DNA of 54,743 nt from Patescibacteria group bacterium (GCA_035283225.1 DATEUG010000011.1:1-54743), one strand, 5' to 3'. Counted from the stretch's first letter, positions 1,937 through 51,922 are shown. Notes: generated by a model from the sequence alone, not told the origin. Program-made: numbers and translations.

Positions 1937-2558
1937 AATTACTAAAAAACACGCCTATTACAATAATCAATTCTTTGCTAAATGGGCAGGCCTTTACGAT
2001 TATGAAAAATATTTTTTCTCTCCTCTGCGACGAAAAGCGGCCAAATTTCTTGGTTTAAAACCTCCCAAAAGAATCCTGGATGTTGCAACCGGTACCGGCG
2101 CCCAAGCTTATGAATTAGCGAAACTTGGTCATGAAGTTATCGGAGTAGACTTATCACCAGAAATGCTCAAAGAGGCGCAAAAGAAACTCAATAAAAATCT
2201 TAACTTAAAATTTAGACAGGCCGACGCTACTCACTTACCTTTTAGAAATAATTCTTTTGATGCCGCCTCAATCTCTCTGGGTTTACATGACATGCCCCAT
2301 GAAATTGATTTAATGGTGTTAAAAGAAATAAAGCGGGTGGTGAAAAAAGGCGGCCAAATATTAATAGTCGATTACAATGAAACGAAAAAACATCTCATTG
2401 CTAAATTATTGTTTCCCGCTATCAATCTGTATGAAACCGTAAATTGGAAACCATTTATTAAGAAAGGCTTAGAAAGCTTACTCAAGGAAGTAAATCTAAA
2501 CGTAGAAAGAGAAACCAATTGGCTGGGCGCAATTCAAATAGTTTTAGTTAGGCTTTAA
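1929..2558 (+). CDS. Class I SAM-dependent methyltransferase (UbiE/Methyltransf_11-like)
   Basis: SAM-binding motif ILDVATGTGAQA, then VIGVDLSPEML, and post-II/III motifs (FDAASISLGLHDMP, KKGGQILIVD). Confidence 0.8.
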   Translation: MNKITKKHAYYNNQFFAKWAGLYDYEKYFFSPLRRKAAKFLGLKPPKRILDVATGTGAQAYELAKLGHEVIGVDLSPEMLKEAQKKLNKNLNLKFRQADATHLPFRNNSFDAASISLGLHDMPHEIDLMVLKEIKRVVKKGGQILIVDYNETKKHLIAKLLFPAINLYETVNWKPFIKKGLESLLKEVNLNVERETNWLGAIQIVLVRL

Positions 2559-3162
2559 ATTTGTCCGGAAATTTCTCGCGTAAAGTAACGGAATTTCTAT
2601 CTCTCTCTGAAATAATCATTTTCTCTTTTGGTGTGGGCCAATCAATCTTTAAATCGGGATCAAACAAGGAAATTGCCTGATCGCCGCTCAAATCGCGGTC
2701 TTTGTACAATTTGTCGACAAAGTAAAGATAATCCACCGGGGCTTTAACCGTACAAACAGAGTTAGCAATCCCCTGGGTAATAAACCAAGCTCCTTTAAGT
2801 CCCCCGTCATCCGGGCCCATCATGGTAGTTACTACTTTTGAAAAAGTGGGTGAATCGGGACGAACATCAACTAAGGCTGAAAAAGCCACTCCGGCAGTGA
2901 CCACCACCAACTTATTCCAGCCTTCAGCGTGCAGACCGCGGACCACATTTTCCGTTGAGCGGGAATGATTAATCTGGGCCACTTTAAAAGGAGTACCAAT
3001 GATGTCTTCAATTTTGTAAGTGTGTCCTAATTCAGCAAAAAAACCGCGCTCGTCCGGGAAAAAATTAGGGGCAAGGTAAAACAAACCGTCAATTACCGTC
3101 TTAAAAACGCCGTCTTTAATTTCCAATTCTGGCTTGGGTTCGTATAGATTTGGGCTCACCAT
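2548..3162 (-). CDS. rmlC: dTDP-4-dehydrorhamnose 3,5-epimerase-like cupin
   Basis: RmlC-like motifs INHSRSTENVVRGLHAE and WNKLVVVTAGVAFSALVDVR. The size of about 200 aa fits. Confidence 0.7.
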   Translation of the reverse strand: MVSPNLYEPKPELEIKDGVFKTVIDGLFYLAPNFFPDERGFFAELGHTYKIEDIIGTPFKVAQINHSRSTENVVRGLHAEGWNKLVVVTAGVAFSALVDVRPDSPTFSKVVTTMMGPDDGGLKGAWFITQGIANSVCTVKAPVDYLYFVDKLYKDRDLSGDQAISLFDPDLKIDWPTPKEKMIISERDRNSVTLREKFPDKFKA

Positions 3163-16884: not shown

Positions 16885-17490
16885 ATGGATTTTGATAAAT
16901 TAGTAGTTTCGTTTTTAGTCGATGAAGTCGTCGGCGGCTTTTTTATTAACGTGCCGCCGGGACATGTCGCCTGCATTCACGACTTGGGCCGCGGAGTCTT
17001 ATCGCGGGTAAAAAAACCCGGTTTACACCTCAAAATCCCCTTCTGGCAAAGAGCCAAACTGTTTAACGCCCAAATTTTAGAGTACCTGATTCGCCATGAT
17101 TTTGACTTAACTCATCATGAAGCCATGGGTGATGAAGCCATCGTTTCTAAAACGAGCGACGGTAAAACCATCCAGGTTGAGGGTTCGATCTTACTTAAAA
17201 TCGATAAAACCCGGGCCAACGAACTCTGGGAAAATATCGGCGACAATTTTATTTCAAAAATTGTCAGACCGGTATCCCGAAGCCGGGTTCGAACCGTTTT
17301 ATCAGAGGTAAGTTTAGCCCAGTTAACCGGCTACCGAATGCAAGTGGAAGAAAAAATTAAACATGAGCTGAATAAGGTTTATAACCCTTTAGGAATAATT
17401 TGCGACGGCTTTTTATTAAGCGAAGTCAAAGACTTGGGCAGTTTGAAAACAAGCAGAGACGACAAGGTGATCTTAGCGGACAAAGGCTAG
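16885..17490 (+). CDS. SPFH/band-7 (prohibitin-like) domain protein
   Basis: [35 protein letters not shown] is typical of SPFH N-termini. GAGGAG SD lies 7 nt upstream. Confidence 0.8.
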
Positions 17491-19827
17491 TTTCAAGACT
17501 TCGTCTAAGTGGGAAACAAACTTAAAGTTGATATCTTTTTTGACCCGGGCGGGCACATCACGCATGTCTTTGAAGTTGTTTTTGGGGACAATTACCGTTT
17601 TAATGCCGGCCCTATGAGCGGCAATTACTTTTTCCTTTAAGCCCCCAATTTCCAAAACCCGGCCCCGTAAGGTTATCTCGCCGGTCATAGCCACATCTTT
17701 TTTCACCTTTTTTCCGGTTAGCGCCGAAATCACCGCGGTCGCCATGGTGATGCCGGCCGAGGGACCGTCTTTAGGCACCGCCCCTTCGGGGACGTGGACA
17801 TGAAGGTCAATTGACTGATAAAAATCGCGCTTTAACTTTAACCCCTGCCAGCGGGACCGGGCATAAGAAATTGCCGCCTGGGCTGACTCTTTCATCACCT
17901 CACCTAGTTGGCCGGTCAAAATGATTCTGCCTTTGCCGGGAATGACGGCCGCTTCAATGAATAAAACATCGCCGCCGGACTGAGTCCAGGCCAAACCGGT
18001 GGCCATGCCGGCTTCGTCGCGTTTTTCTTTTAGAGGCGGCAAGAATTTTTCCGCTCCCAAGTAATCATCAAGCTTTTGGGGTGTAACCGTAAACTTACCC
18101 TTTTTGCCGGCGGCAATCGCTTTAGCTAGTTTACGCATCACTTTGCTGATTTCCCGCTCTAAACTTCGGACTCCTGCCTCTCTGGTGTAAGCATCAATAA
18201 TCTTTCTGATTGTGTTTAAAGGCAGGCTGACTTTTTTGCCAGACAAGCCATTGGCTTCTACTGTCTTAGAAATCAAATACTTCTTGGCGATTATCTCTTT
18301 TTCGTCAGCGGTGTAGCCGGCAAACCTAATGATCTCCAAGCGGTCTCTTAAAGCCGGCGGGATGGTATCCAAAACGTTGGCGGTGGTGACAAACATCACT
18401 TTGGATAAATCAAAGGGGACTTCTAAATAGTGATCAGAAAATTCATGGTTTTGTTCTGGGTCTAGGGCCTCCAGTAATGCCGCCGATGGGTCGCCGCGGA
18501 AATCAATCCCGATTTTATCGATTTCATCCAGCATAAACACCGGGTTATTTGTTCCGGCAGTGTTAATCCCCTGAATGATGCGTCCGGGCATGGCCCCGAC
18601 ATAAGTCCGCCTATGCCCCCTAATCTCGGCTTCATCCCTAATCCCGCCCAGAGAAATTTTGACAAATTTTCGCTTTAAGGCCCGGGCGATTGACCGGCCG
18701 ATTGAAGTCTTACCTACCCCCGGCGGGCCGACAAAACATAAAATCGTCGGGCCGGAGCGTGAAGCTTTATTTTTAAGCTTACTTTTTAACTGCATCACCG
18801 CCAAATACTCCAAAATTCTTTCCTTCACTTCTTTTAAGCCGTAGTGGTCCGCTTCTAAAATATTTTCGGCTGATTTAATGGTGATGTCGTTAGCACTAGC
18901 TACCGACCAAGGCAAATCGCACAGCCACTCTAAGTAGGTCCGGATATAACCTGATTCGGGATTAAAGTTAGTCATCGCTTCCAGGCGGTTTAATTCTTTC
19001 AAGGCTTTGGCTTCGACATCTTCAGGCATGGCTGCCTTGGTAATTTTTTCTTTCAATTCTTTAATGTCTTTGTTTTCATCTTCTTCACCCAATTCTTTTT
19101 GAATGGTCTTTAAGCGTTCTCTGAGCACCGTTTCCCGCATCGATTTATCAAATTTCTTCTGGGTTTTAGCAGCAATATTTTTCTCAATCTCCAAAATCTT
19201 TAATTCGGAAGAGAGGTAGTCAGAAACCGATTCCAGGCGTTTTTTGACATCCAAAACTTCTAAAAGATCCTGCTTTTGAGGCGTGGTAACATCCAAGTTA
19301 GTCGCCACTTGGTCGGCCAGTTCCGATGAAGAAACTCCGCCCATCACCCGCATAAACATCATAAAGTCGACCGACTTGCCGATATTGACCGCTTTTTTAA
19401 AGCTGTGTAAAACGTGTTTTTCCAGAGCCGACATTTCATCCGACTCTTCGATAGTTTCGGCTAACTCCTCAACTTTAGCCACCAAAAATGGCTCTTTGGC
19501 TTCAAGTGAGCGAATCTTTACCCGGCTCATCCCCCGCACCAAAGCATTAATCTCGCCGTCGGTTTTCAGAATCCGCTCAATGGTACAAAGCGTCCCCACG
19601 GTATAAATGTCGTCAAAACCAGGCTCACTAATGCGGGGATTTTTTTGGGTGACAAACACCACCAGGCGGTCAGACCGGAAGGCGGCTTCGATACCGGCGT
19701 TTGATTTTGGCCGGCCAAAAGTTAACACCGCTTCAGCGTGAGGAAAAACCACACCTTCGCGTAAAGGTACTAAAGGTAAAGTTCTTAAGGGTTTTGATTT
19801 TTGCGTTGGTCCTAAAAGTATGGCCAT
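17473..19827 (-). CDS. lon: ATP-dependent Lon protease (LonA)
   Basis: LON N-domain, Walker [10 protein letters not shown], Walker B FMLDEIDK, and S16 catalytic [14 protein letters not shown]. Confidence 0.95.
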
Positions 19828-19835
19828 GTTTTAGC

Positions 19836-19863
19836 AGTATAAACTAATGAGTGCTAATGTCAA
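19836..19863 (-). promoter_or_regulatory. Near-consensus sigma70-type promoter of lon (leaderless configuration)
   Basis: On the minus strand: TTGACA (19863-19858), a 16-nt spacer, TATACT (19841-19836), then 8 nt to ATG 19827. No SD. Confidence 0.6.
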
Positions 19864-20305
19864 TCCCTCGACTTCGCTCGGGACTATAGTTCTTCTTTAT
19901 CTTTCTCAGGTTGCCGCGCAAAACAATCGGCCTCACCCCGATGATTTCTTCGGTATAAAGCATGTTTTTAGGAATGTCATTTAGAATGTAAATCGGTTTT
20001 TTTAAGTAGTAGGCAAAACCCATTTCCATTAAGGTGTTGCCGCCGATGTAATTTTTTACCGCCAGTTTAGTCGGATTGACTACTAGTATCGCGTCAGCCT
20101 TTTTGATTGCCTCAAAATGCATAGTGATGGCAGCTGATTTAAACTGGCGTTTATGCCAGCCTAAGCGTTTCAAGTCCCACTCCCCTGATTTAATTTTTTT
20201 CGTTCCGATCGGCAACAAGACTTTAAAACCTAAAGCTATCAGTTCCCGTTCAACCTGTAAAATCTGGTAATGGGCATGAAGCGAGGCACAAACAGCAATG
20301 GTCAT
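19844..20305 (-). CDS. Nucleoside 2-deoxyribosyltransferase-like fold protein (tentative)
   Basis: The pattern IAVCAS...ADAILVVN...YIGGNTLMEMGFAYYLKKPIYIL resembles Nuc_deoxyrib_tr-like proteins. The C-terminal 10 codons are contributed by a dispersed repeat. Confidence 0.4.
   Translation of the reverse strand: MTIAVCASLHAHYQILQVERELIALGFKVLLPIGTKKIKSGEWDLKRLGWHKRQFKSAAITMHFEAIKKADAILVVNPTKLAVKNYIGGNTLMEMGFAYYLKKPIYILNDIPKNMLYTEEIIGVRPIVLRGNLRKIKKNYSPERSRGIDISTH
19864..19886 (+). repeat. Family-B dispersed motif copy forming the 3' end of CDS 19844-20305 and abutting the lon -35 box
   Basis: TCCCTCGACTTCGCTCGGGACTA is identical over 23 nt to 13385-13407. Read on the minus strand it encodes SPERSRGI. 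Confidence 0.7.
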
Positions 20306-20751
20306 TTTCTCATTTTACTATCAATAATAATTGTGGTTGGCCCATCGTTAGTTAAATCTACCTGCATGTAGTCGCCAAAGTTGCCGGTTTTAACCGTAAG
20401 ATTGGCCGCCCTAAGGCCAGCGACAAACTGATGGTAATATTTTTCAGCAACAGCCGGCTCGGCCGCCTTGATAAAACTGGGTCGATTGCCGCCGGAGACG
20501 TCACCGGCTAAAGTAAATTGAGACACTACCAAAACAGAGCCGCCTGAGGCGGCCAGGTCCAGATTCATTTTCCCCGCTTCGTCAGACATAATTCTTAGTT
20601 TTGTAATTTTTTTAACCAGATAGTCAAGGTCGGTGTCATGATCACCGGTAATTACACCCAGTAAGATTAAAAACCCTTTGCCGATTTTGGCGATTTGGTT
20701 ATCTTTAACCGTTACCCGGGCAGTTGCCACCCGCTGGATTAAAGCAATCAT
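20302..20751 (-). CDS. dtd: D-aminoacyl-tRNA deacylase
   Basis: MIALIQRV start, GFLILLGV, SQFTLAGD...GNRPSF and NDGPTT motifs. Confidence 0.9.
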   Translation of the reverse strand: MIALIQRVATARVTVKDNQIAKIGKGFLILLGVITGDHDTDLDYLVKKITKLRIMSDEAGKMNLDLAASGGSVLVVSQFTLAGDVSGGNRPSFIKAAEPAVAEKYYHQFVAGLRAANLTVKTGNFGDYMQVDLTNDGPTTIIIDSKMRK

Positions 20752-21392
20752 TTAAAGCCTGAAGCTAGTTCTCTTAAAGCCGCTTCCTGATCGGCTGCTT
20801 TGACTACGGCTGAGGCCAAAATCACTCCCACTCCTCCCAAACTTAAAGTTTTTTTGACGTTGTCGCCGGTTCGAATACCCGCCCCAACAATTACCGGCAC
20901 AGGAGATAGATCAATTACCTGTTTAATGTGATCGGCTTCAACGTCAACCATGGCCACTTTTCCGCCGATTAAATCGGGCCGCTCAAAAGCTAAATAATCC
21001 GGCTGTAACTCAATTACCTGTTTAACCAAATCAATCGTGTCGGCAATTACTAGTGTTTTTAAACCGTATTGACGGCATTTATTAATTGTGGTGTCAATCG
21101 TTCCCAGCGGGACTGTATGTTCGGCGTGATTAATCACTGCCCCAACCGCGCCGACTTGCCTGGCTGAATAAGGCGACAGCCAGCCGGAGTGACGATCCGG
21201 ATCGATCGGGTCAAGGTGCTGGGCCCAAATAGGCAGTTTAACTGCTTGGACCAATCGGTAAATATCGAAAGCTTGGGCGCAGAGCCAAATAGGAACGCCT
21301 GTGTCTTGATTCACCTTTTCGGCAATTCTAGCCAGCTTAATGACCTCGTCGCCACTTGATTCCTTGTAAGTTTTTAAACTCAAAACAATCAT
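20748..21392 (-). CDS. tpiA: Triosephosphate isomerase, short archaeal type
   Basis: 214 aa. The segments WAQHLDPIDPDRHSGW, GAVGAVINHAEH, DYLAFERPDLIG and VGAGIRTGDNVKK...GVGVILASAVVKA match archaeal (Pyrococcus-type) TIM as I recall it. Catalytic K, H and E are present. Confidence 0.85.
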   Translation of the reverse strand: MIVLSLKTYKESSGDEVIKLARIAEKVNQDTGVPIWLCAQAFDIYRLVQAVKLPIWAQHLDPIDPDRHSGWLSPYSARQVGAVGAVINHAEHTVPLGTIDTTINKCRQYGLKTLVIADTIDLVKQVIELQPDYLAFERPDLIGGKVAMVDVEADHIKQVIDLSPVPVIVGAGIRTGDNVKKTLSLGGVGVILASAVVKAADQEAALRELASGFK

Positions 21393-21982: not shown

Positions 21983-22208
21983 GTTGGGTTTAACTTTAAT
22001 CGGCGCTTTAACTTTGGTGCTGGCCGGCTGCAACTTGTTGCCATTAACCCAGGAAAACAAAACCACCGGCGAAACCGATGTCACTATGGAAAAACCGCTT
22101 TCTGACGAAACTGATCTTGATACGGTTGAGGAAGAACTCAATGAAACCCAAGTCCAGGATTACACACCCGAGCTAAACACCCTGGATCAGGAAATCAATA
22201 AACTTTGA
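21972..22208 (+). CDS. Small putative lipoprotein
   Basis: GTG 21972 is preceded by AGGAGG (21960-21965). Lipobox LVLAGC and an acidic mature part. Confidence 0.45.
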   Translation: MKNKLGLTLIGALTLVLAGCNLLPLTQENKTTGETDVTMEKPLSDETDLDTVEEELNETQVQDYTPELNTLDQEINKL

Positions 22209-23791
22209 TAAAGCCGACCCCTCCTAAATCCCTGTTTTTTATAGTATTGCCTGGTGCCGACCGCTGAAATCACTGACAAATGTTTAAAGCCGGCTTTTTT
22301 TGCTAATTCGGCCGCAGTTTTAATTAAGGTTTTTCCCAGGCCCCGGTGCTGAGCTTTAAGGCCGCTGTCTGCCCCCAAATCTAAGGCTTTGCCGTAAACG
22401 TGGATTTCCCGAATCAGGGCCGCGCCTTTAAGTTCAGGAATAAAAGCCGGCTTTAACGGCAAACTTAACCTTAAAAAACCGGCAATCTGGTTATCCGGGG
22501 TAACAAACTGCAAAAAATTTTCTTTAGCTAAACCTGCCGCATAACTGGTAATCTTTAGTTTCAGTTTGGCCGCGTCAATCGGCTGGCCCCGGACTTCCCG
22601 GGCCCGAATCTCTTTCAATTGCTTCCCCTGTCTTCTGATTTCCTTTTCCACAATCTCCCGAAAATTAGTCAATTTGTTGCCGACAACGATATCATCTGAG
22701 GAAAAATCGCGAATCACCCGGGTCACCCGGCAATATTCGGTAACCATCGGCAAAGCAGCCACTAAGACTTTTAAAAGCTCACTGTAAGAATATGGTTTCC
22801 ATAAACCTTTTTTGTAATAATCCATTAATTCGGCTGTCTCAATTAAAGCTGTTGGGTAAACTTTCAGTTCGTCCGGCCTGATGCCTGGATCAGAAAACAA
22901 CTTAGTAAAGTCTTTAATGTCGCCCTCTGGGTCAGCCCCATAAAGGTTGGCCATCCAGTGGCCCTGGATTTTAAAACCGGCAAGTCTCAATAAGCCAATC
23001 GCTTTTTTAGTAGCACGAACCCTATGGCCCCGTTTATTTAAGTTAAGCACCCGGTTATTTAAACTTTGAATTCCTATTTGAATCTTAGTACAGCCTAATT
23101 GCCTAAAGCGCACTAACTCTGCTTCGTTCAAAAAATCAGGCCTGGTTTCTAAGGACAAGCCAACACAGCGGCTGACCGCAGTTTCGTTTTTCTTTTGAGC
23201 CGGATACAATTCCGGCCAATCGGCTGAGCCGTCAATCTGCGGGGCTTTAACTTTCTTGGTTTTACCGGGTTTAAAATCGTTTAAAGCGTCAAAACAGCGC
23301 TTGATAAACCAGATTTTGTAATGTTTTGGATATGACGACCAGGTGCCGCCCAAAACTATCAATTCAATCTTTTCAGTCGAGTGGGCATTAGCGTGGTAAG
23401 TCATTAACCGGGTGGTCACTTGGTTGTAAGGGTCAAAATTATTCAAAGCTGCTCTTTGGGCTCCCGGCTCGGCTGATAAATAGCTTTTGGGCATTTTCGG
23501 ATCATTGGGGCAAAAAATACATTTGCCAGGACAGGGATAGGGTTTGGTCAATAACGTTACCGGCACTACCCCGGACAAAGTGCGCACTGGCTTGGCCTGA
23601 AGTTTGGCGGCCGCCCCTTCGCCGTAAAAATGCCTTAAGCCGGCAATTATTTCTGACCGGGTAAACAGCGACCCTTTGGTTTTAGGATGACGCCTCAAAA
23701 CCTGGTCATAGGTTTGACCGGCTACCAGCTCTTTTAAAAGCGGCTTGAGTTTCTTTTGGTGAGACTTAAGATTAAAATCAAATTTACCCAT
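22187..23791 (-). CDS. elp3: Elp3-family radical-SAM/GNAT tRNA uridine(34) acetyltransferase
   Basis: Radical-SAM cluster region KPYPCPGKCIFCPND. The C-terminal GNAT domain has the QHRGLGKTLIKTAAELAKKAG acetyl-CoA motif. 534 aa. Confidence 0.85.
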   Translation of the reverse strand: MGKFDFNLKSHQKKLKPLLKELVAGQTYDQVLRRHPKTKGSLFTRSEIIAGLRHFYGEGAAAKLQAKPVRTLSGVVPVTLLTKPYPCPGKCIFCPNDPKMPKSYLSAEPGAQRAALNNFDPYNQVTTRLMTYHANAHSTEKIELIVLGGTWSSYPKHYKIWFIKRCFDALNDFKPGKTKKVKAPQIDGSADWPELYPAQKKNETAVSRCVGLSLETRPDFLNEAELVRFRQLGCTKIQIGIQSLNNRVLNLNKRGHRVRATKKAIGLLRLAGFKIQGHWMANLYGADPEGDIKDFTKLFSDPGIRPDELKVYPTALIETAELMDYYKKGLWKPYSYSELLKVLVAALPMVTEYCRVTRVIRDFSSDDIVVGNKLTNFREIVEKEIRRQGKQLKEIRAREVRGQPIDAAKLKLKITSYAAGLAKENFLQFVTPDNQIAGFLRLSLPLKPAFIPELKGAALIREIHVYGKALDLGADSGLKAQHRGLGKTLIKTAAELAKKAGFKHLSVISAVGTRQYYKKQGFRRGRLYQSLLIS

Positions 23792-24445
23792 ATGGATTTT
23801 GATAAATTAAATCGGGATTTCTATTTAAAAACCCAAGAGTATTTTAACAGGTCGCGCCAGCGTCCATGGCTGGGTTGGAAAAAACTGCTGCCCCATCTGC
23901 CCAATCGTGAACTTTTTGTGCTTGATCTTGGCTGCGGCAATGGCCGTTTCGGCGTCTGGCTTTCGACTCACCACTCCATCGCCTATACCGGGGTCGATTC
24001 CAACCAATATTTGCTCGATCGCGCCACCGAGGCCCTACCATCCGCCAAATTAATTAAAGCTGATATCTTGCATCCTCTCCTTGTTCGCGGCCGGTTTGAT
24101 TTAGTGGCCATTTTAGGTGTGATGCATCATTTATCGCCCGCCGCTGCCGCTGGCCTTATTCGCCGGGCCGCCGCCAAGCTTAAACCAGAAGGAATTTTAT
24201 TTTTAAGCTTCTGGGAATTTAATAAATCCTCCGAAACCAAAATCATCAAAGATTTGGGCAATAATGATTATCTGGTCGATTGGCGCTTGGGCGTCACCGC
24301 CGAGCGCTTCTGCCATTTGTACACTGATCCAGAAATCTCTTCCCTACTCGCTGCCGCCAATCTCTCTGTCCTGGCCGACTTTCGCGCCGACACTTCCAAC
24401 CGCTACCTGCTACTGCAAAAACCAAAGTCCGGCAAAAGCAGCTAA
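23792..24445 (+). CDS. Class I SAM methyltransferase, Trm9/ALKBH8-MT-like (tentative)
   Basis: YFNRSRQRPW (compare Trm9 HFSxTRYxPW), LDLGCGNGRFG, ILGVMHHLS...LIRR and LKPEGILFLSFWEF. Similarity to Trm9 motifs is judged from memory. Confidence 0.55.
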   Translation: MDFDKLNRDFYLKTQEYFNRSRQRPWLGWKKLLPHLPNRELFVLDLGCGNGRFGVWLSTHHSIAYTGVDSNQYLLDRATEALPSAKLIKADILHPLLVRGRFDLVAILGVMHHLSPAAAAGLIRRAAAKLKPEGILFLSFWEFNKSSETKIIKDLGNNDYLVDWRLGVTAERFCHLYTDPEISSLLAAANLSVLADFRADTSNRYLLLQKPKSGKSS

Positions 24446-25280: not shown

Positions 25281-25529
25281 CTATTTATACACTCTCTGAC
25301 GGTGCTGGATTTTATGAATTATTATTAGCTGTTGTTTAAGATTAATTTCGTAAATAACTCTATAAGGCCAAACTTTAAGAGAAGATAGGCCTTTAAATTC
25401 TCCTTTTAAGACTTTCCCTGCCTGAGGATTATTTTTTAGGAAGAAAAGTTTGATGGCAATTTTTTTCTGCTTTGACAGAGGGAGCTTTTTTAACGATTTA
25501 ATCGAATCTCTCGAATAAACCAGCTTCAT
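25281..25529 (-). CDS. Type II toxin, RelE/ParE family
   Basis: 82 aa. The pattern SIKSLKKLP...KI..KL..L..NP..GK.LKGEFKGLSSLKVWPYRVIYEI....LIIIHKIQHRQRVY is typical of RelE/ParE. It lies 3 nt downstream of the antitoxin gene. Confidence 0.8.
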   Translation of the reverse strand: MKLVYSRDSIKSLKKLPLSKQKKIAIKLFFLKNNPQAGKVLKGEFKGLSSLKVWPYRVIYEINLKQQLIIIHKIQHRQRVYK

Positions 25530-25532
25530 TTA

Positions 25533-25829
25533 TTAATCTAAATCTTTAGGATTAATCCCTAACTCTTTGAGCAATTTTTCTTCAGTAATAAATTTACCCC
25601 TTTTAACTTCTGACTGGCTTTTACGGATATCTTTCACCAATTTTTCATCAGCCATTATTTCCAGGGTTTCCCGCCAAGACTCCAGCTCGTCCGGGCTGAT
25701 CAATATCGCCTTAACCTTGCCACGCAGGGTAATAGTAAAGGTTTTTAGTTTAGTGTTAACCTCGTCCAGCATGGTGTAAAAATTATTTCTAGCTTCGCTG
25801 GCGGGTAAAACGTTTGAGATAGAGGCCAT
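25533..25829 (-). CDS. Type II antitoxin, Phd/YefM family
   Basis: LPASEARNNFYTMLDEV...ITLRGKVKAILISPDELESWRETLEIM is a Phd/YefM signature. Start set at ATG 25829 (MASISNV) because a -10 box sits 8 nt upstream. Confidence 0.8.
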   Translation of the reverse strand: MASISNVLPASEARNNFYTMLDEVNTKLKTFTITLRGKVKAILISPDELESWRETLEIMADEKLVKDIRKSQSEVKRGKFITEEKLLKELGINPKDLD

Positions 25830-25856
25830 ATATTCGAATAGTACCATTAATGGTAC
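25830..25856 (-). promoter_or_regulatory. Toxin-antitoxin promoter with palindromic operator candidates
   Basis: A perfect 16-bp palindrome GTACCATTAATGGTAC (25841-25856) overlaps the -10 TACTAT (25843-25838, minus strand). An adjacent 10-bp palindrome TATTCGAATA lies at 25831-25840. Confidence 0.55.
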
Positions 25857-26302
25857 TACCTGTCAATACTCTCGAGATAAATATTAATATTGTCGTAGTG
25901 GTCAAAGGCAATTTCCTCGACCGGCGGCAATTTATCTAAATCAAACCATTGCATCTCGGAAGATTCATGGTCAGCTTTACCAGTTTTTTCTGTTGGTTTA
26001 GCTAGATAAACAAAAGAAACATTTTGTCTGTCTTCTTTGGGCCTGTCAGGGCTATCAACAATCCGCAGTAGTTTAATTATTTGAATTTCGTAACCAGTTT
26101 CTTCTTTGACTTCCCGCATTGCCCCCTGTTCACACGTTTCATCCCGATCAAGAAAACCGCCCGGTAAAGCCCACTTACCCGACTCTAAGAGTTTACCGGT
26201 TCTTTTAGCCAGTAAAATTTTATTGCCGTCTAATAACAACACGTCTACTACCACGTGCCTTAAAGAATCCTTGCCGTCATTTTCAAACTGACAGGTAATC
26301 AT
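25856..26302 (-). CDS. NUDIX hydrolase
   Basis: Nudix box GGFLDRDETCEQGAMREVKEETG. Confidence 0.85.
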   Translation of the reverse strand: MITCQFENDGKDSLRHVVVDVLLLDGNKILLAKRTGKLLESGKWALPGGFLDRDETCEQGAMREVKEETGYEIQIIKLLRIVDSPDRPKEDRQNVSFVYLAKPTEKTGKADHESSEMQWFDLDKLPPVEEIAFDHYDNINIYLESIDR

Positions 26303-27171
26303 AAAAGTGGAACAGCGTCGGATATATCTTTTTGATCAGGAAATTCTTTGTCTAGGCGCTCCATGTCATTTTTGTCCATCTGCCAGCCTAGTGCGCCCAA
26401 GTTTTCCTCCAAGTGTTCTAAATTGGTCGATTTAGCCAAAGTAATAATATTTTCCTGACTGATCAACCAATTGATAGCAATTTGACTGGGAGTTTTTTGG
26501 TATTTAGCACACATTTCATCCAGAATCGGATAGTGACCAGGTTGGGTTAATGCCCCTTTTTGCACCGGTCGCCAGGCAATAAACAGCATGTCATTTTGCT
26601 GGCAATATTCTACCAAGCCATCCCGCTCGGGCTCGCGATACATTAAGTTGAGATGAAGCTGATTAGCCACAATTTGGTTTTGGGTGGCAGTCACCGCTTC
26701 TTTGGTTCTTTTAATAGAAAAATTGCTGATGCCGATATTTTTAATCCGGCCGTCGGCTTTTAACTTGTCCATCGCTGCCATCGTTTCTTTAATCGGCACC
26801 TGAAGACTGGGAGCATGCAGTAAGTAAAGATCCAGGTAGTCAATTTGCAGACGCTTTAAACTGTTTTCGCAGGCTACTAATAAATCATCATGCCTCAGAT
26901 GCTCTTGATGAGCTTTGGAAACGATAAATAGCTTAGATCGATCGTAACCTTTAATGGCTTGAGCCACTAATTCTTCTGCGTGACCGGCAGAATAACTTTC
27001 AGCAGTGTCGATGTGAGTAATCCCCGCCTCAATCGCGGCCTTAATCGCTGCAATGTCTGCTTGGTCGTCATTTTGCGGGTCACGTTCGTGTCTGCCACCC
27101 ATTTGCCAGGTACCAAAACCAAACACGGGCATGGAAAAACCCGATTTTAAAGTTTTGACCGGAATATTCAT
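26299..27171 (-). CDS. Aldo/keto reductase
   Basis: GFGTWQMG, IDTAESYS, catalytic-tetrad context (D, Y, K, H: LFIVSKAH, LLHAP), and IGISNF. Confidence 0.9.
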   Translation of the reverse strand: MNIPVKTLKSGFSMPVFGFGTWQMGGRHERDPQNDDQADIAAIKAAIEAGITHIDTAESYSAGHAEELVAQAIKGYDRSKLFIVSKAHQEHLRHDDLLVACENSLKRLQIDYLDLYLLHAPSLQVPIKETMAAMDKLKADGRIKNIGISNFSIKRTKEAVTATQNQIVANQLHLNLMYREPERDGLVEYCQQNDMLFIAWRPVQKGALTQPGHYPILDEMCAKYQKTPSQIAINWLISQENIITLAKSTNLEHLEENLGALGWQMDKNDMERLDKEFPDQKDISDAVPLL

Positions 27172-28322
27172 AAATTAATTATAGCGGCTTTATCGGCAAT
27201 TTCCCTTACGAGCCGATCAATTTTAATTTTCTTCTCTATTTGATCAATTTTCTCCGGATTGGCTCTGGTAGCCGGCGAACGGGAAATAATTGAACAACAG
27301 TCTTTATAGGGGGCAATTGCGGCCTGTTCCAAACCTAAACTTCTGACTAAATCGATAATCTCTTTTTTATCAGTACCGATTAAGGGCCGAAATACGGGCA
27401 AATCGGCGGCGGCATCAACGGCCACAATATTGCTTAGCGTCTGTGAAGCCACCTGGCCCAGGCTGTCGCCGACCACTAAGGCTTCATATCCGTGTTTTTT
27501 GGCCAAGGCTCCGGTCGCTTTAATCATTAACCGCCTAAAAACGACCAATTCGTGCGGGGCCAAATCTGCTGACAGATCAACTACTTCCATTTGGAAAGGA
27601 ATATAACTTAATAAAAACAGTTTTTGCGAGTAAGTGAACTCTTTTAAACCATCAACAATATCCTTAATTTTGGTCTTTAATACTTGCTTATGATCACTAA
27701 AAACATGGAAATGAGCAAAATCGACTTGCGCTCCTCTTTTGGCTAGTAAGTAGGCGGCAGCAATAGAATCAAAGCCGCCGGATAATAAACACAACACTTT
27801 GCCGCTGGTTCCCACCGGCAGGCCGCCGGCGCCGGCTAATTTGGCGCTATAGATAAAGGTGTTGATTTTCCCCAGATCCAAATAAATAGTTTTGTCAGGC
27901 TTAGATAAGTCGACCTTAGCTTTGGTAGCTTTAATCACTGCCGCACCCAGTTCCCGATCCGCCTCCTGACTGGTAAATGAAATCGTCTTATCGTTTCTGT
28001 GGGCGGCAATGGCAAAGGTGTCTTTATTTTTTATCTGTTTTTTAGCCAAACTCACTACCGCCTTGGTGATCACAGTCAGGTCAGTTTTAACCTCAACTAC
28101 CGGTGCAAACCAGGCAACTCCAAAGATATGTTCTAATTTTTTTAGACTTTGATTAATTAAACTTTCATCAACCTCGATTAAAATCTGTTTTCTTAACTTG
28201 GTTACAGCCCGGTTCGGTAAATTCAATGATCTTTTTAGGTTGGAAATTAGAGAATTTTCAAAAAAGTTTAAGTTTTTGCCCTTTAAGGCAATTTCTGCAT
28301 AGCGGACTAAAATTTTGGTCAT
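27168..28322 (-). CDS. thiI: tRNA 4-thiouridine(8) synthase ThiI (no rhodanese domain)
   Basis: N-terminal ferredoxin-like/THUMP region (ILVRYAEIALKGKN) and PP-loop LLSGGFDSIAAAYLL. Start set at ATG 28322. Confidence 0.85.
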   Translation of the reverse strand: MTKILVRYAEIALKGKNLNFFENSLISNLKRSLNLPNRAVTKLRKQILIEVDESLINQSLKKLEHIFGVAWFAPVVEVKTDLTVITKAVVSLAKKQIKNKDTFAIAAHRNDKTISFTSQEADRELGAAVIKATKAKVDLSKPDKTIYLDLGKINTFIYSAKLAGAGGLPVGTSGKVLCLLSGGFDSIAAAYLLAKRGAQVDFAHFHVFSDHKQVLKTKIKDIVDGLKEFTYSQKLFLLSYIPFQMEVVDLSADLAPHELVVFRRLMIKATGALAKKHGYEALVVGDSLGQVASQTLSNIVAVDAAADLPVFRPLIGTDKKEIIDLVRSLGLEQAAIAPYKDCCSIISRSPATRANPEKIDQIEKKIKIDRLVREIADKAAIINL

Positions 28323-29002
28323 AACCATGTCTTTCTTCCGGTAAAAACTGAAACCTGCCTCATATAGCTGCGGATTCCTGTATAGTTGAAAAGTTCCCAA
28401 AACATCTTGCCATCTCTTTTTAATCCGACAAGGCCGTATTTTTTCAACTTTAACGTAGTCTTGGCCCTAGAAGGCAGAGTAACAACCGTTAAATTATGGT
28501 CCAAACAATATTGATTTAAAGCGAGTTCCAGCTGAAACCCCTTAACTCGGCCACGAAGCACCGCTTTTAAAATCTTAGTTTTAACAATTCTTTCCCCGGA
28601 TAAAAGGATGTGTGTCGCCAATAAAGAACTTCTAAATGGGTCATTAATCCTGCCAAAAATTAACATGTCAATCTTTGGCTCCTTGCGGCACCAATCCAAG
28701 CCTGCCTGAAAATCTTTAACGGAAATTTTTCTTAAATCCGCATCCAGTAAAAAAACGTAATGAGTTTTGACTTTTTTTAAACCGGCAGCAACTGCTGCTG
28801 TTTTCCCTTGATTCTCTTTCAGTTTGATTAAAGTAACCCAAGGATACTTTTTGGCAATCTTTTCTGAGGCTAAATCTTGCGAACCGTCGTCAACACAAAC
28901 AATATCGGCTTGGCGCTTGAACGTGCTGATTTTGTCTAAAACTCTCAAAACCCTTTCCCCTTCGTTATAGAAAGGAATAAGACAAGTAAACTGTTTTGCC
29001 AT
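28319..29002 (-). CDS. Family 2 glycosyltransferase
   Basis: CLIPFYNEGERV, VCVDDGSQD and LLDADL (DxD). Start set at ATG 29002, because the longer ORF would run into the tRNA gene. Confidence 0.8.
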   Translation of the reverse strand: MAKQFTCLIPFYNEGERVLRVLDKISTFKRQADIVCVDDGSQDLASEKIAKKYPWVTLIKLKENQGKTAAVAAGLKKVKTHYVFLLDADLRKISVKDFQAGLDWCRKEPKIDMLIFGRINDPFRSSLLATHILLSGERIVKTKILKAVLRGRVKGFQLELALNQYCLDHNLTVVTLPSRAKTTLKLKKYGLVGLKRDGKMFWELFNYTGIRSYMRQVSVFTGRKTWL

Positions 29003-50271: not shown

Positions 50272-51471
50272 TTAGTAGCCAACTTCGTTCCCCGTCGGCA
50301 GTACCGAGATCCAAATTGGCCCTGGATTGAATTTAACTTCTTTGCCGGCGGCATCATAAAAAATAGTTCGGCTTAAGCGTTTGGCTTTGGCCCAACTGCC
50401 GTCTTCCACTTTCCCGTCTTTAAAAATTAAAGCCTTGCCTTTGCCGGTGGTGCCGTATAAAAGATGGACGTTGCCGGGATAGCCGTCGTTAGCATTTTTC
50501 TCGGTGGCAAACTGAACCACCAGATTTTTGGTGGTTAACTGACCGTTAGTGTTTAGGTCCAAATGCGGAGCAGCGCCGTTTAAGCGTTTGTAAAGATTAT
50601 TTTCTTTGTCGTACTGCCAGCTAACCTCGTAGGCGGTGTCTTCCCAGAAACCATAGTTAACACTGGCCAAGTCGCCCCGGTTGGCAAAATCGGCCTCGTC
50701 TTTGACAAACTGCCACGGTTCAAAAACTTTACTCCAAACCTCACCCTCTGGATCTTTATCGGTGTAGCCCCGTTTTTCAGCCACGGCCCAGAGTTTCTCG
50801 GTGGTGGAATACATCGTGTGCTCGGTGGCGACTGTCCGGCCCAAACGCTCGTAATCCCGCCAAAACGTCGGGTAACCGATAGAAAACTGATTCAAGTCGT
50901 TATTGGTTGCCCAGCCGTAGTCGCCGATTTGGCCTAAGGCGTCGGCCGGACCATCGGCATTAGCGCCGCCAACATGGACATATAAGGGAAAGTTGTACTC
51001 TGACGCCCAGTCCAAAAAGTAAGTCCGGGCGGACCGGACCGGACCAACAATCGGCTCATAGGCGGCCGCGTTGCAATAGAAAAGTGCCATAAACCGGGTG
51101 ATACCGCCTTCAGCCACCGCTTCGTAGACTAGGTCGGCGTCAGACAAGCCTGACTGCGGCCTGGCTTCCAGGTGATTTTCAATCATTACCGCCAGAGGCC
51201 TTCTTGCCTCCCAGATATTTTTTTCAGCTTTGGTATACAAAGCGCCGTTTAAGGGACACGATTCGGTTTTGGCGCCGATAACGTCAATTAAGGCTTTACG
51301 ATTGGGGTTAGTAGGCGCGGTCGACTCACTCCCCCCCTCGCCGGGCAAGGGCGAAGTGAAAATTGCAGCCACCGATGAACCCGAAAACCAAGAGTAAGAT
51401 AAACCGGCGCTTAATAAATAAACGCCAAGCATCAATAAAATGGAGAAGATTTTTTTCTTATTACTGGGCAT
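50272..51471 (-). CDS. DUF3048-family secreted protein (YerB-like)
   Basis: RPLAVMIENHLEARPQSGLSDADLVYEAVAEGGITRFMALF is the hallmark N-terminal DUF3048 block, from memory. Confidence 0.65.
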   Translation of the reverse strand: MPSNKKKIFSILLMLGVYLLSAGLSYSWFSGSSVAAIFTSPLPGEGGSESTAPTNPNRKALIDVIGAKTESCPLNGALYTKAEKNIWEARRPLAVMIENHLEARPQSGLSDADLVYEAVAEGGITRFMALFYCNAAAYEPIVGPVRSARTYFLDWASEYNFPLYVHVGGANADGPADALGQIGDYGWATNNDLNQFSIGYPTFWRDYERLGRTVATEHTMYSTTEKLWAVAEKRGYTDKDPEGEVWSKVFEPWQFVKDEADFANRGDLASVNYGFWEDTAYEVSWQYDKENNLYKRLNGAAPHLDLNTNGQLTTKNLVVQFATEKNANDGYPGNVHLLYGTTGKGKALIFKDGKVEDGSWAKAKRLSRTIFYDAAGKEVKFNPGPIWISVLPTGNEVGY

Positions 51472-51922
51472 CTTTGATTGCTTTGATTTCTTCTTTGCTT
51501 AATTCATGACCCGAGGCCCGCCCGTTTTTAACCGTTTTGGCATAAAATCGGGTGGTGTCCCGCGAGTGTAAAGAGCTTAGCACAAAACCAGTGTCGGTTT
51601 CATCTAGTAAACTTAAAACAAAACTCTGATCGCCGCCGGTCGCGGGAAAGGGATTAAACCTGACAAAACCAACCTTCTGGATGTGATGCGTGCTTTTGGC
51701 CTGCAACTGGTTTAAGTGCTTGATCAAATCGGCCATTTTCTGAGTTTGCTCATCACTCCGGTTTAATAACATGGTCAAGATGGTTTTTAAATCCTTTTTG
51801 GCAATATTTTGGGTCAGACGCTGATAATGAAGCATCATTTGAATCAACAAAATGGTGATAATGATCAGCCACACCAAAACCGCAATAGTCAAAATTGAAA
51901 GCAAACTTAAATCGAGAGACAT
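51461..51922 (-). CDS. DUF4446-family membrane-anchored protein
   Basis: TM anchor plus GFVRFNPFPATGGDQSFVLSLLDETDTGFVLSSLHSRD, typical of DUF4446, from memory. Confidence 0.65.
   Translation of the reverse strand: MSLDLSLLSILTIAVLVWLIIITILLIQMMLHYQRLTQNIAKKDLKTILTMLLNRSDEQTQKMADLIKHLNQLQAKSTHHIQKVGFVRFNPFPATGGDQSFVLSLLDETDTGFVLSSLHSRDTTRFYAKTVKNGRASGHELSKEEIKAIKDAQ

Follow-up and report, generated by a model that had tools for sequence, protein, structure and literature searches.

A head-to-head Elp3 and Trm9-family methyltransferase gene pair as a probable wobble-uridine modification module in a Patescibacteria group bacterium

A stretch of DNA of 54,743 nucleotides from a Patescibacteria group bacterium, which is referred to as the window, contains a gene for Elp3 and a gene for a SAM-dependent methyltransferase that are transcribed in opposite directions from a single point. 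This arrangement raises the question of whether the two proteins modify the wobble uridine (U34) of tRNA in the manner of eukaryotes and archaea. The mcm5U pathway itself and the clustering of Elp3 and Trm9 genes in archaea are already known. According to a 2017 review, homologues of the methyltransferases that depend on Trm112 are absent from bacteria (PMC5372719), and a 2020 review places Elp3 in one bacterial clade only, with no evidence of xcm5U34 (PMC7663514). Our literature search yielded no publication that deals with Trm9 in bacteria or with a bacterial Elp3-Trm9 pair. The conserved bacterial pair described here runs against these reviews.

Abutting start codons and the signals around them

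The Elp3 gene occupies positions 22187..23791 on the minus strand and encodes 534 amino acids with radical-SAM and GNAT/KAT domains; the product is predicted to be a cm5U34 synthase. The gene for the Trm9-family class I SAM methyltransferase lies at 23792..24445 on the plus strand, and its product of 217 amino acids is predicted to methylate the carboxyl group of cm5U34 to form mcm5U34. A reading of the sequence alone had proposed that the two start codons abut as CATATG. Indeed, the ORF coordinates place this junction at 23789..23794, with the two ATGs back to back and 0 intergenic bases. The identical junction was also present in five independent contigs (L001, L003, L056, L062, and L086).

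Both start codons agreed with those of the relatives. The Elp3 ORF begins with ATG, its translation includes PCPGKCIFC and QHRGLGK, and its start is backed by the alignment to relatives, which runs from residue 1. For the methyltransferase, the mechanical ORF call opens at a TTG at 23756. This codon was rejected as the start because the 12 residues that it would add are absent from every homologue. The homologues open with M-D-(x)-L-x-K-L-N where the in-frame ATG at 23792 falls, which backs that start, and the ORF ends at 24445. The blocks FNRSRQRPW, DLGCGNGRFG, VMHHLS, and FLSFWEF, which the sequence-only reading had assigned to this protein, were all found in the translation.

Subsequently, the promoter signals were examined. 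A Shine-Dalgarno-like motif was found for only 7 of the 54 genes in the window. A hexamer that agrees with TATAAT at five or more of its six positions, and whose end lies 6-13 nt ahead of the start codon, was found for 20 of the 54, the background being about 1 per 5-nt bin. The genome of the window thus appears to use mostly leaderless-type promoters. At other places in the window, a single near-symmetric -10 region that is 22-25 bp wide is common to both genes of a divergent pair. Bidirectional or overlapping divergent promoters and leaderless mRNAs are known in bacteria; in comparison with these, the window shows shared -10 regions and starts located 6-13 nt past the -10 boxes. The Elp3/Trm9 junction differs from known divergent promoters in that no shared intergenic -10 box was found there; hence, any promoter elements must sit in coding sequence.

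Each promoter had been expected to lie within the other gene. On the methyltransferase side, this expectation was supported by a -10-like hexamer, TAAAAT (23773..23778, plus strand), which is located 13 nt before the ATG and within Elp3 codons 5-7, and which we infer to be a candidate element of the methyltransferase promoter. The sequence TTAAAAT is kept in the window and in three of the contigs (L001, L003, and L086). On the Elp3 side, no convincing -10 box was found near the junction, so that only half of the expectation is supported. A scan of positions 23300-24300 for consensus sigma-70 promoters and terminators gave 0 matches. Most transcripts are predicted to be leaderless, beginning on the start codon itself or no more than a few nucleotides from it and having no Shine-Dalgarno sequence, and a zero gap would be tolerable because they start there. 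With leaderless starts, the -10 box would be the sole upstream signal needed and could be accommodated within the opening codons of the gene on the other strand.

Identity of the two proteins

The Elp3 of the window scored 459 bits against the curated model TIGR01211 (ELP3; cut-off 350), its residues 42-528 corresponding to positions 33-517 of the 522 in the model, and Pfam recognized the Radical_SAM, Radical_SAM_C, and GNAT domains. The matches in the PDB spanned 9e-92 to 5e-73 and included MinElp3 (6iaz, 9e-92), DmcElp3 (5l7j, 5e-88), and eukaryotic Elp3 (3e-81). The radical-SAM iron-sulfur cluster motif PCPGKCIFC (23510..23536, minus strand) contains C87, C91, and C94, and the GNAT acetyl-CoA-binding motif QHRGLGK (22331..22351, minus strand) corresponds to residues 481-487. 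When 12 bacterial Elp3 proteins were aligned, the three cysteines and Q481, H482, G484, and G486 were invariant.

Residues 1-66 (23594..23791, minus strand) form a basic N-terminal extension with 13 K/R versus 5 D/E. In the alignments to this protein, DmcElp3 begins only at residue 67 and eukaryotic Elp3 at residue 47. A role in tRNA binding has been reported for the Elp3 N-terminus (PMC6367351). The claim that this Elp3 is full length was thus confirmed by the TIGR01211 score, the N-terminal extension included. The accompanying claim that bacterial Elp3 homologues are rare was wrong, since at least 592 relatives were found in a metagenome scan.

We also considered that the bacterial Elp3 is not a U34 enzyme and acts instead as an acetyltransferase on proteins or other RNAs, or as a radical-SAM methylase-like enzyme, in which case the pair would have another target. 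According to the 2020 review, xcm5U34 has never been detected in bacteria and DmcElp3 is very weakly active in vitro (PMC7663514), both of which would fit such a function. However, the Elp3 of the window matches Elp3 proteins of the three domains over its full length and with high identity, retains all the cofactor motifs, and has the basic N-terminal tRNA-binding extension, unlike DmcElp3. Furthermore, its partner is a homologue of Trm9, of which the sole known substrate is the Elp3 product. A target other than U34 is accordingly regarded as highly improbable.

In a phmmer search of the PDB with the methyltransferase, Yarrowia Trm9 (5cm2_Z) was the first match at 3.7e-13, the runner-up being at 7e-6. 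A family-profile search of the PDB (4.4e-16, positions 26-225, the sole full-length match) and a Foldseek search (E 7.5e-15, TM 0.80) with the AF2 model, which has a Rossmann fold and a pLDDT of 93.9, likewise ranked 5cm2 first, with small margins over generic methyltransferases that came close behind. When the methyltransferase family was compared with 10 fungal Trm9 proteins using hhalign, the match extended over the full length (198 columns) with a probability of 99.6% and an E value of 1.1e-24. Taken together, these sequence and model comparisons place the methyltransferase of the window in the Trm9 family. The resemblance to Trm9/ALKBH8 that had been noted in the sequence was therefore borne out by the top PDB match by sequence, profile, and fold, by hhalign, and by the catalytic residues. 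The family comprises about 2,200 clusters (50% identity, E<=1e-30). In an unbootstrapped NJ tree, the protein of the window fell in a bacterial clade with members from Chloroflexota, Microgenomates, and Acidobacteriota, apart from archaeal and eukaryotic Trm9.

The methyltransferase is not named by any curated model of NCBIfam or Pfam; the Pfam matches were the generic Methyltransf_23/25/11 only, and all the NCBIfam matches were far under their cut-offs. Among specific names, UbiG (score 32 versus cut-off 103), BioC (30.5 versus 185), Tam (32.7 versus 297), UbiE/MenG (17 versus 158), and CmoM (PRK11036, 16.7 bits versus 366) were rejected. Some databases label relatives of this protein 'UbiE' or '2-polyprenyl...methylase', and class I methyltransferases are a hard group to assign.

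The residues required for catalysis and substrate binding were then compared with those of yeast Trm9 (ScTrm9). Seven of the eight residues found to be essential by mutagenesis of yeast Trm9 (PMC4678810) are kept in the protein of the window, the exception being Y243, which is replaced by Cys. The SAM-binding motif I, LDLGCGNG (23921..23944, plus strand), contains D45, which is invariant in the family and corresponds to ScTrm9 D72; the D72A substitution abolishes SAM binding in the yeast enzyme (PMC4678810). The N-terminal helix (23822..23857, plus strand) carries Y11 and R22, which are both invariant in the family and were aligned by hhalign with ScTrm9 Y18 and R29; in the yeast enzyme, these two are proposed to hold the cm5U carboxylate in place (PMC4678810). 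H112-H113 (24125..24130, plus strand) correspond to H115/H116 of ScTrm9, of which H116 is essential.

In the substrate-binding insert (24212..24316, plus strand), W141, W164, and R172 correspond to ScTrm9 W145, W168, and R241, and C174 takes the place of Y243. N203 (24398..24400, plus strand) corresponds to ScTrm9 N271, which has been proposed to recognize uracil O2/N3; it was paired by hhalign with the N of the fungal 'DNWW' and is near-invariant in the family. Y11, R22, H112, H113, W141, W164, R172, and N203 were thus found in the protein of the window and in nearly all members of the family. At the second Tyr of the RYYH motif, the protein of the window reads RFCH. In the clade of the window, position 174 is occupied by C, V, or I; many other Patescibacteria and the archaeal members have Y there. 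In yeast, the Y243A variant of Trm9 retains about 10% activity (PMC4678810).

Conserved linkage and the proposed U34 chemistry

The co-occurrence survey that the sequence-only reading had proposed was carried out with two locus sets chosen independently, one selected by the methyltransferase and the other by Elp3 alone. In species-representative genomes, Elp3 was found within 4 kb in 61 of the 70 evaluable methyltransferase-selected loci; 59 of these 61 were divergent, and in 49 the gap did not exceed 350 bp, the median gap being 67 bp. Conversely, the methyltransferase was located divergently upstream in 55 of the 69 evaluable Elp3-selected metagenome loci. Since the adjacency recurs in both sets, it is far beyond chance.

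The linkage was thus kept in both directions and across phyla. The outcome that the sequence-only reading had named as refuting its proposal, a grouping of the methyltransferase with non-tRNA enzymes and a lack of conserved linkage to Elp3, was not observed. Among the hosts of the pair are numerous Patescibacteria classes as well as Chloroflexota and Acidobacteriota, and the linkage persists amid unrelated flanking genes down to about 25-30% identity. An archaeal (Crenarchaeota) locus, L079, also has a family member adjoining Elp3, the two genes being co-directional with the methyltransferase first. No third conserved gene was found between or beside the pair, including in the loci with a gap of more than 600 bp that were inspected; the insertions in those gaps vary by lineage (Ser/Thr kinase, membrane proteins, SDR, and CysH-like PAPS reductases).

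These data bear on a rival explanation, in which the methyltransferase would be a generic class I enzyme with a small molecule or another RNA or protein as its target, and would lie beside Elp3 owing to common regulation or compaction of the genome and not to a common pathway. The generic Pfam matches, the NCBIfam scores (UbiG, BioC, Tam, CmoB, and others) far under the cut-offs, the database labels of the relatives, and the generic methyltransferases near Trm9 in the fold search are compatible with it. It is contradicted by the two-way linkage across phyla despite unrelated flanks and such low identity, by the full-length match to Trm9 only, and by the retention of Trm9-specific residues beyond the Rossmann core (R22, the HH pair, W141, W164, R172, and N203). 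Moreover, 4 truly generic, non-family methyltransferases from the same scan lacked the Trm9 signature, and 0 of the 4 were near Elp3. We hence consider a generic enzyme to be scarcely credible here.

The two-gene, eukaryote- or archaea-like U34 module suggested by the sequence-only reading is supported by the protein identities, the retained residues, and the two-way linkage. We estimate a probability of roughly 75% that Elp3 and the methyltransferase constitute a self-contained xcm5U34 module of the eukaryote/archaea type in a bacterium. In the proposed scheme, Elp3 alone would carboxymethylate U34 at C5 in some of the tRNAs by means of its radical-SAM site and its acetyl-CoA (GNAT) site, presumably forming cm5U. 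The Trm9-family methyltransferase would then esterify the cm5U carboxylate in a SAM-dependent manner, and the expected product is mcm5U34 or a derivative. The divergent layout is kept across many bacterial phyla, and its gap has shrunk to zero in the Beckwithbacteria-like lineage to which the bacterium of the window belongs.

The end product of a genuine U34 module might also be other than mcm5U; for example, the substrate could be cm5s2U, or the ester could be an intermediate leading to ncm5U or a hydroxylated form. The replacement of Tyr by Cys, Val, or Ile at the Y243 position may alter the specificity in the clade of the window, and two bacterial clades show a systematic difference at position 174. 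In trm9 mutants of Haloferax (PMC6144793) and, as reported, of yeast (PMC3110198), cm5U is turned into other species with no accumulation. On the other hand, all the other residues contacting the carboxylate, uracil, and SAM are kept, the pair has no conserved third gene, and the insertions are lineage-specific. A product of this kind is therefore unlikely, and mcm5U34 is retained as the presumed product.

Trm112 is required by eukaryotic and Haloferax Trm9. A weak test, namely tblastn with a single E. coli YcaR query together with a zinc-knuckle regex, gave no credible YcaR/Trm112-like ORF in the window or in the flanks of 85 loci (L001-L085). Of the Trm112-contact positions, Yl V59 and F78, which are central and hydrophobic, mostly correspond to charged or polar residues in the bacterial homologues, and F116 and D117 are kept. 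The bacterial enzymes may be independent of Trm112.

The conservation of the pair across phyla suggests that many bacteria probably carry out wobble chemistry of the mcm5U type. A stronger proposal is that much of bacterial diversity (most Patescibacteria classes, many Chloroflexota, some Acidobacteriota, and others) decodes with mcm5U34 instead of, or besides, the xm5U34 of MnmE/MnmG, using a Trm112-free two-gene module, and that in Beckwithbacteria the leaderless promoters lie in each other's first codons; we put this forward tentatively and find it rather doubtful in its entirety. If the chemistry is widespread, the map of U34 decoding across the tree of life and the argument on its origin (LUCA or gene transfer) would change, and thousands of genes now labelled 'class I SAM-dependent methyltransferase' or 'UbiE' could receive new names. 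The pair could also provide simple two-protein systems, possibly Trm112-independent and soluble, for the clinically relevant chemistry of human Elp3 and Trm9. Caldilineae and Anaerolineae isolates and Saccharibacteria co-cultures are cultured carriers of the pair, which makes the question directly testable. Furthermore, the zero-gap junction would offer a clean natural case in which coding DNA accommodates a pair of promoters along with both start codons, in an organism predicted to have leaderless transcripts.

Comparison with known systems

The eukaryotic mcm5U34/mcm5s2U34 pathway, consisting of Elongator and Trm9-Trm112 (the ALKBH8 methyltransferase domain in animals), employs the same two catalytic proteins. 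Eukaryotic Elp3 and the Elp3 of the window have in common a basic N-terminus as well as the radical-SAM domain and the KAT domain, and eukaryotic Trm9 has the same fold as its partner and shares R29, D72, H115/H116, W145, W168, R241, and N271. In contrast to the eukaryotic system, the window has no Elp1/2/4/5/6, its Elp3 being a stand-alone protein like that of archaea; Trm112 was not found in the vicinity, the V59/F78 contacts are mostly polar or charged, and Y243 is replaced by Cys. The two genes are, in addition, paired head to head and in a bacterial host.

The archaeal system of Elp3 and aTrm9-Trm112 resembles the window in its stand-alone Elp3, its Trm9 orthologues, which carry the RYYH motif, and its clustered genes. 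HvoTrm9 of Haloferax volcanii (HVO_1032) makes mcm5U (PMC6144793), and an Elp3-Trm9 cluster in Sulfolobus solfataricus has been published (PMC2584109), with which the adjacency in the Crenarchaeota locus agrees. Archaeal Trm9 is Trm112-dependent in vivo and is separated from the bacterial clade of the window protein in the unbootstrapped NJ tree, and the genes of the Crenarchaeota locus are co-directional, whereas those of the window are divergent.

The Elp3 of Dehalococcoides mccartyi (DmcElp3; 5l7j, 5e-88) is bacterial and stand-alone like that of the window, and no discussion of a partner methyltransferase for it was found in the literature consulted. DmcElp3 lacks the basic N-terminus of about 65 residues and shows very weak activity (PMC6367351, PMC7663514), whereas the Elp3 of the window has the extension, as do archaeal and eukaryotic Elp3. 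Among bacterial pathways, CmoM (cmo5U to mcmo5U) follows the same logic, namely methyl-esterification of the U34 C5 side-chain carboxylate by a class I enzyme, but belongs to a different family (8joz, 5e-9, versus 4e-16 for Trm9 in the family-profile search). The MnmE/MnmG xm5U pathway also targets the same wobble position. The upstream chemistry distinguishes them: Elp3 would perform it in the window, whereas CmoA/CmoB or MnmEG do so in the bacterial pathways.

Start codons and promoter signals of the divergent pair

The Elp3 ORF in the ORF list occupies 22187..23791 on the minus strand, starts with ATG and encodes 534 aa. The methyltransferase ORF occupies 23792-24445 on the plus strand and, read from an in-frame ATG at 23792, encodes 217 aa. 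Accordingly, the two start codons stand back to back in the CATATG at 23789-23794, leaving 0 intergenic nucleotides, and the ORF list and this junction confirmed the divergent pair with abutting ATGs described in the sequence-only reading. A mechanical ORF call placed the methyltransferase start at a TTG at 23756, and this start was rejected, as the extra 12 residues are absent from all homologues. In the homologue alignment, the family N-terminus, M-D-(x)-L-x-K-L-N, coincides with the ATG at 23792, and the Elp3 proteins of relatives align to the window Elp3 from residue 1. The same junction was also found in five further contigs among the numbered homologous loci from other genomes and metagenomes (L001, L003, L062, L086, and L056), the proteins of which showed merely ~50-63% identity. 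Its recurrence in such diverged contigs indicates that the junction is real and inherited rather than an annotation artefact. In other Patescibacteria (L044, L055, and L060), the predicted start codons overlap outright as CATG.

Start signals were then considered over the whole window. A Shine-Dalgarno-like motif was present at just 7 of the 54 genes, and TATAAT-like hexamers (at least 5 of 6 positions) were located 6-13 nt before the start codon at 20 of the 54, the background being about one per 5-nt bin; examples of the genes in this analysis are 2548..3162, 20748..21392, 26299..27171, and 51461..51922, all on the minus strand. Judging from this hexamer pile-up and the rarity of Shine-Dalgarno motifs, the default mRNAs of the host appear to be leaderless or near-leaderless. 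The Elp3/Trm9 junction is an extreme case of these compact, leaderless-type gene starts. Four more divergent pairs in the window have starts 22-25 bp apart (32488/32514, 36048/36071, 45427/45450, and 53581/53606), each with one near-symmetric -10 region between the starts, for example CTATAATAG and GCTATAATAAC; these regions look like shared bidirectional leaderless promoters.

Each promoter of the Elp3/Trm9 pair had been expected to lie inside the other gene, and this expectation was borne out on one side at most. A consensus promoter scan of 23300-24300 gave zero matches. A candidate -10 element of the methyltransferase gene, TAAAAT, was found at 23773-23778, within Elp3 codons 5-7 and 13 nt before the ATG; the window shares the longer form TTAAAAT with L001, L003, and L086. 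No -10 box of comparable quality was found for Elp3 at the start of the methyltransferase coding sequence. A promoter inside the opposite gene is thus plausible for each, as far as can be read from the sequence.

Identity of the two enzymes

The window Elp3 scored 459 bits against the NCBIfam model TIGR01211 (ELP3; cut-off 350) over residues 42-528 and contains the Pfam domains Radical_SAM, Radical_SAM_C, and GNAT. It matched the solved structures of archaeal (6iaz, 9e-92), Dehalococcoides (5l7j, 5e-88), and eukaryotic (8ptx, 3e-81) origin. Across 12 bacterial homologues, neither the acetyl-CoA motif (QHRGLGK) nor the three cluster cysteines (C87, C91, and C94, in PCPGKCIFC) varied. The alignment with Elp3 of Dehalococcoides mccartyi (DmcElp3) begins only at window residue 67; the window protein has a basic N-terminus of 66 residues, including 13 K/R, whereas DmcElp3 is without it. 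The N-terminal region of Elp3 is reported to be important in tRNA recognition, and the weak activity of DmcElp3 has been linked to its missing N-terminal region (PMC6367351, PMC7663514).

Pfam and NCBIfam assigned the methyltransferase to nothing more specific than generic class I methyltransferases. UbiG, BioC, Tam, CmoB, CmoM, and UbiE were rejected as identities, every score being far under the curated cut-off. When all PDB sequences were searched with phmmer, Trm9 of Yarrowia (YlTrm9; 5cm2_Z) was the top match at 3.7e-13, with an alignment spanning residues 21-194, and the runner-up was at 7e-6. A family profile of 21 members again placed Trm9 at the top (4.4e-16), and among the matches listed for this profile, only Trm9 covered profile positions 26-225. 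The AlphaFold model of the protein (pLDDT 93.9) also retrieved 5cm2_Z as the top match in Foldseek, with an E-value of 7.5e-15 and a TM-score of 0.80, generic methyltransferases following close behind. Furthermore, when the bacterial family was compared by hhalign with Trm9 sequences from fungi (10 proteins), the probability was 99.6% and the E-value 1.1e-24 over 198 columns. The window methyltransferase thus groups with Trm9 by four independent tests.

Conserved residues were compared with those of yeast Trm9 (ScTrm9), in which mutation of R29, D72, H116, W145, W168, R241, Y243, or N271 abolishes or strongly lowers activity, and H115 and Y18 sit close to the substrate (PMC4678810). In the alignment, R29, D72, H116, W145, W168, R241, and N271 correspond to R22, D45, H113, W141, W164, R172, and N203 of the window protein, and H115 and Y18 to H112 and Y11. 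The sole residue not matched is Y243, which is C174 in the window protein (RFCH in place of RYYH). We accordingly assigned the protein to the Trm9 family, Y243 being the one tested feature that it lacks. The resemblance to Trm9 that had been recognised by eye was therefore upheld by phmmer, profile, Foldseek, hhalign, and these conserved residues. Position 174 (window 24311-24313) is Cys, Val, or Ile throughout the clade of the window, which comprises methyltransferases of Microgenomates, Chloroflexota, and Acidobacteriota; it is mostly Tyr, with a minority of Val, Ile, and Phe, in a second, Patescibacteria clade, and Tyr in archaea. This split between the bacterial clades may reflect a difference in specificity.

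Trm9 depends on Trm112 in eukaryotes (PMC4678810) and in Haloferax (PMC6144793). No Trm112/YcaR-like ORF was found in the window or in L001-L085 by a single query and a regular expression, a weak test. Two central Trm112-contact positions of YlTrm9, V59 and F78, are hydrophobic across fungal Trm9, and both bacterial clades mostly carry Lys, Arg, Ser, Asp, or Glu there. At a third position, V103, the window's clade has mainly Lys, Gln, or Glu and the second clade often still has Val; F116 and D117 are kept in the bacterial homologues. The window protein has F42, A64, and K89 at the V59, F78, and V103 positions. These changes hint that the bacterial enzyme would be stand-alone.

Linkage of the pair and its hosts

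The methyltransferase family comprises 2,184 clusters (50% identity, E<=1e-30). When species-representative genomes (GTDB, a single genome for each species) were searched with the family alignment, 80 loci were recovered; 4 non-family methyltransferases without the signature were excluded, and 70 loci were evaluable. Elp3 lay within 4 kb at 61 of the 70; the two genes were divergent in 59, with a gap of at most 350 bp in 49 (median gap in the survey, 67 bp). In a survey of metagenomes by Elp3 only, at least 592 relatives were found and the best 80 loci were taken, of which 69 had upstream sequence sufficient for judging. The methyltransferase was divergent upstream of Elp3 in 55 of these 69. 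The linkage seen in the window was accordingly recovered in two independent surveys, whichever gene was used for selection. The flanking genes vary among lineages; hence, the conserved unit is the pair itself. No third conserved component was found at loci with genes inserted inside the pair, the type of insert being lineage-dependent.

According to genome titles, the carriers in Patescibacteria include Beckwithbacteria, WWE3, Dojkabacteria, Pacebacteria/Paceibacterota, Saccharibacteria, Kuenen-, Portnoy-, and Komeilibacteria, Peregrinibacteria, and Gracilibacteria. The Chloroflexota carriers are Anaerolineae, Caldilineaceae, and Aggregatilineales, and the others are Acidobacteriota, Myxococcales/Deltaproteobacteria, Fermentibacteria, and "Candidatus Multivorans". 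Elp3 and a Trm9-family gene are likewise neighbours on a Crenarchaeota contig (L079). In an unbootstrapped NJ tree, generic methyltransferases fell outside three groups: the Patescibacteria "RYYH" group, archaeal and eukaryotic Trm9, and the Microgenomates/Chloroflexota/Acidobacteriota group including the window. Five MAGs titled "uncultured Gammaproteobacteria" (L043, L055, L067, L073, and L084) carry Trm9-like genes and mostly also Elp3. Their Trm9-like genes fall inside the Patescibacteria group of the tree; wrong bin taxonomy or gene transfer may be responsible, and these labels are read cautiously.

Several local arrangements were also observed. The window shares synteny with the Beckwithbacteria-like L001 and L003 at 17473-21392 and 25856-28400, in the order Lon protease, TIM-barrel protein, two small unknown genes, Elp3/Trm9, NUDIX, and ThiI (tRNA s4U8); a D-Tyr-tRNA deacylase, an EamA transporter, and an aldo-keto reductase are additional in the window. 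Between the EamA and NUDIX genes, two small adjacent ORFs of 82 and 104 aa (25281-25847, minus strand) look by eye like a RelE/ParE-type toxin and a Phd/YefM-type antitoxin; L001 and L003 have no called genes at the matching position. In Candidatus Multivorans and Thermoanaerobaculia MAGs (L014, L026, L036, and L040), a gene of ~270 aa, co-directional with the methyltransferase and called a short-chain dehydrogenase/reductase by eye from its TGGGSGIG motif, always lies between Elp3 and the Trm9-like gene. In an Aggregatilineales MAG (L010:3980-5692), the Trm9-like ORF reads through without a stop into a domain resembling TrmB, the tRNA m7G46 methyltransferase ("LEIGFGQGHFL...NFPDPW"), giving 570 aa. 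The Trm9 C-terminus diverges immediately ahead of the join, and the ORF may be a true fusion or a long-read frameshift merging two neighbouring tRNA methyltransferase genes.

Comparison with the known pathway

In the eukaryotic pathway, cm5U is made by Elp3 and then converted to mcm5U by Trm9. The interpretation of the window pair as a probable wobble-modification module of this type is supported at the level of sequence, structure prediction, and comparative genomics. No account of a bacterial Trm9, or of Elp3 and Trm9 paired in a bacterium, turned up in a full-text literature search. Published statements on bacteria run contrary to the pair seen here: homologues of the Trm112-dependent methyltransferases are said to be missing from bacteria (PMC5372719, 2017), and Elp3 to be confined to a single bacterial clade, no evidence of xcm5U34 being known there (PMC7663514, 2020). 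A 2026 paper places Elp3 in "numerous bacteria" with the partner enzyme unmentioned. The automatic JGI annotation of some relatives reads "tRNA (uracil-5-)-methyltransferase TRM9", indicating that the homology is reachable by routine pipelines.

The enzymes and the pathway are of known kinds; the pair would widen the range of the pathway to a large, formerly unrecognised part of the bacterial domain, and the proposal is readily testable. In archaea, the Trm9 pathway has been demonstrated in Haloferax (PMC6144793), and the clustering of Elp3 and Trm9, noted in Sulfolobus in 2008 (PMC2584109), is already published; the window pair is a bacterial instance of such clustering.
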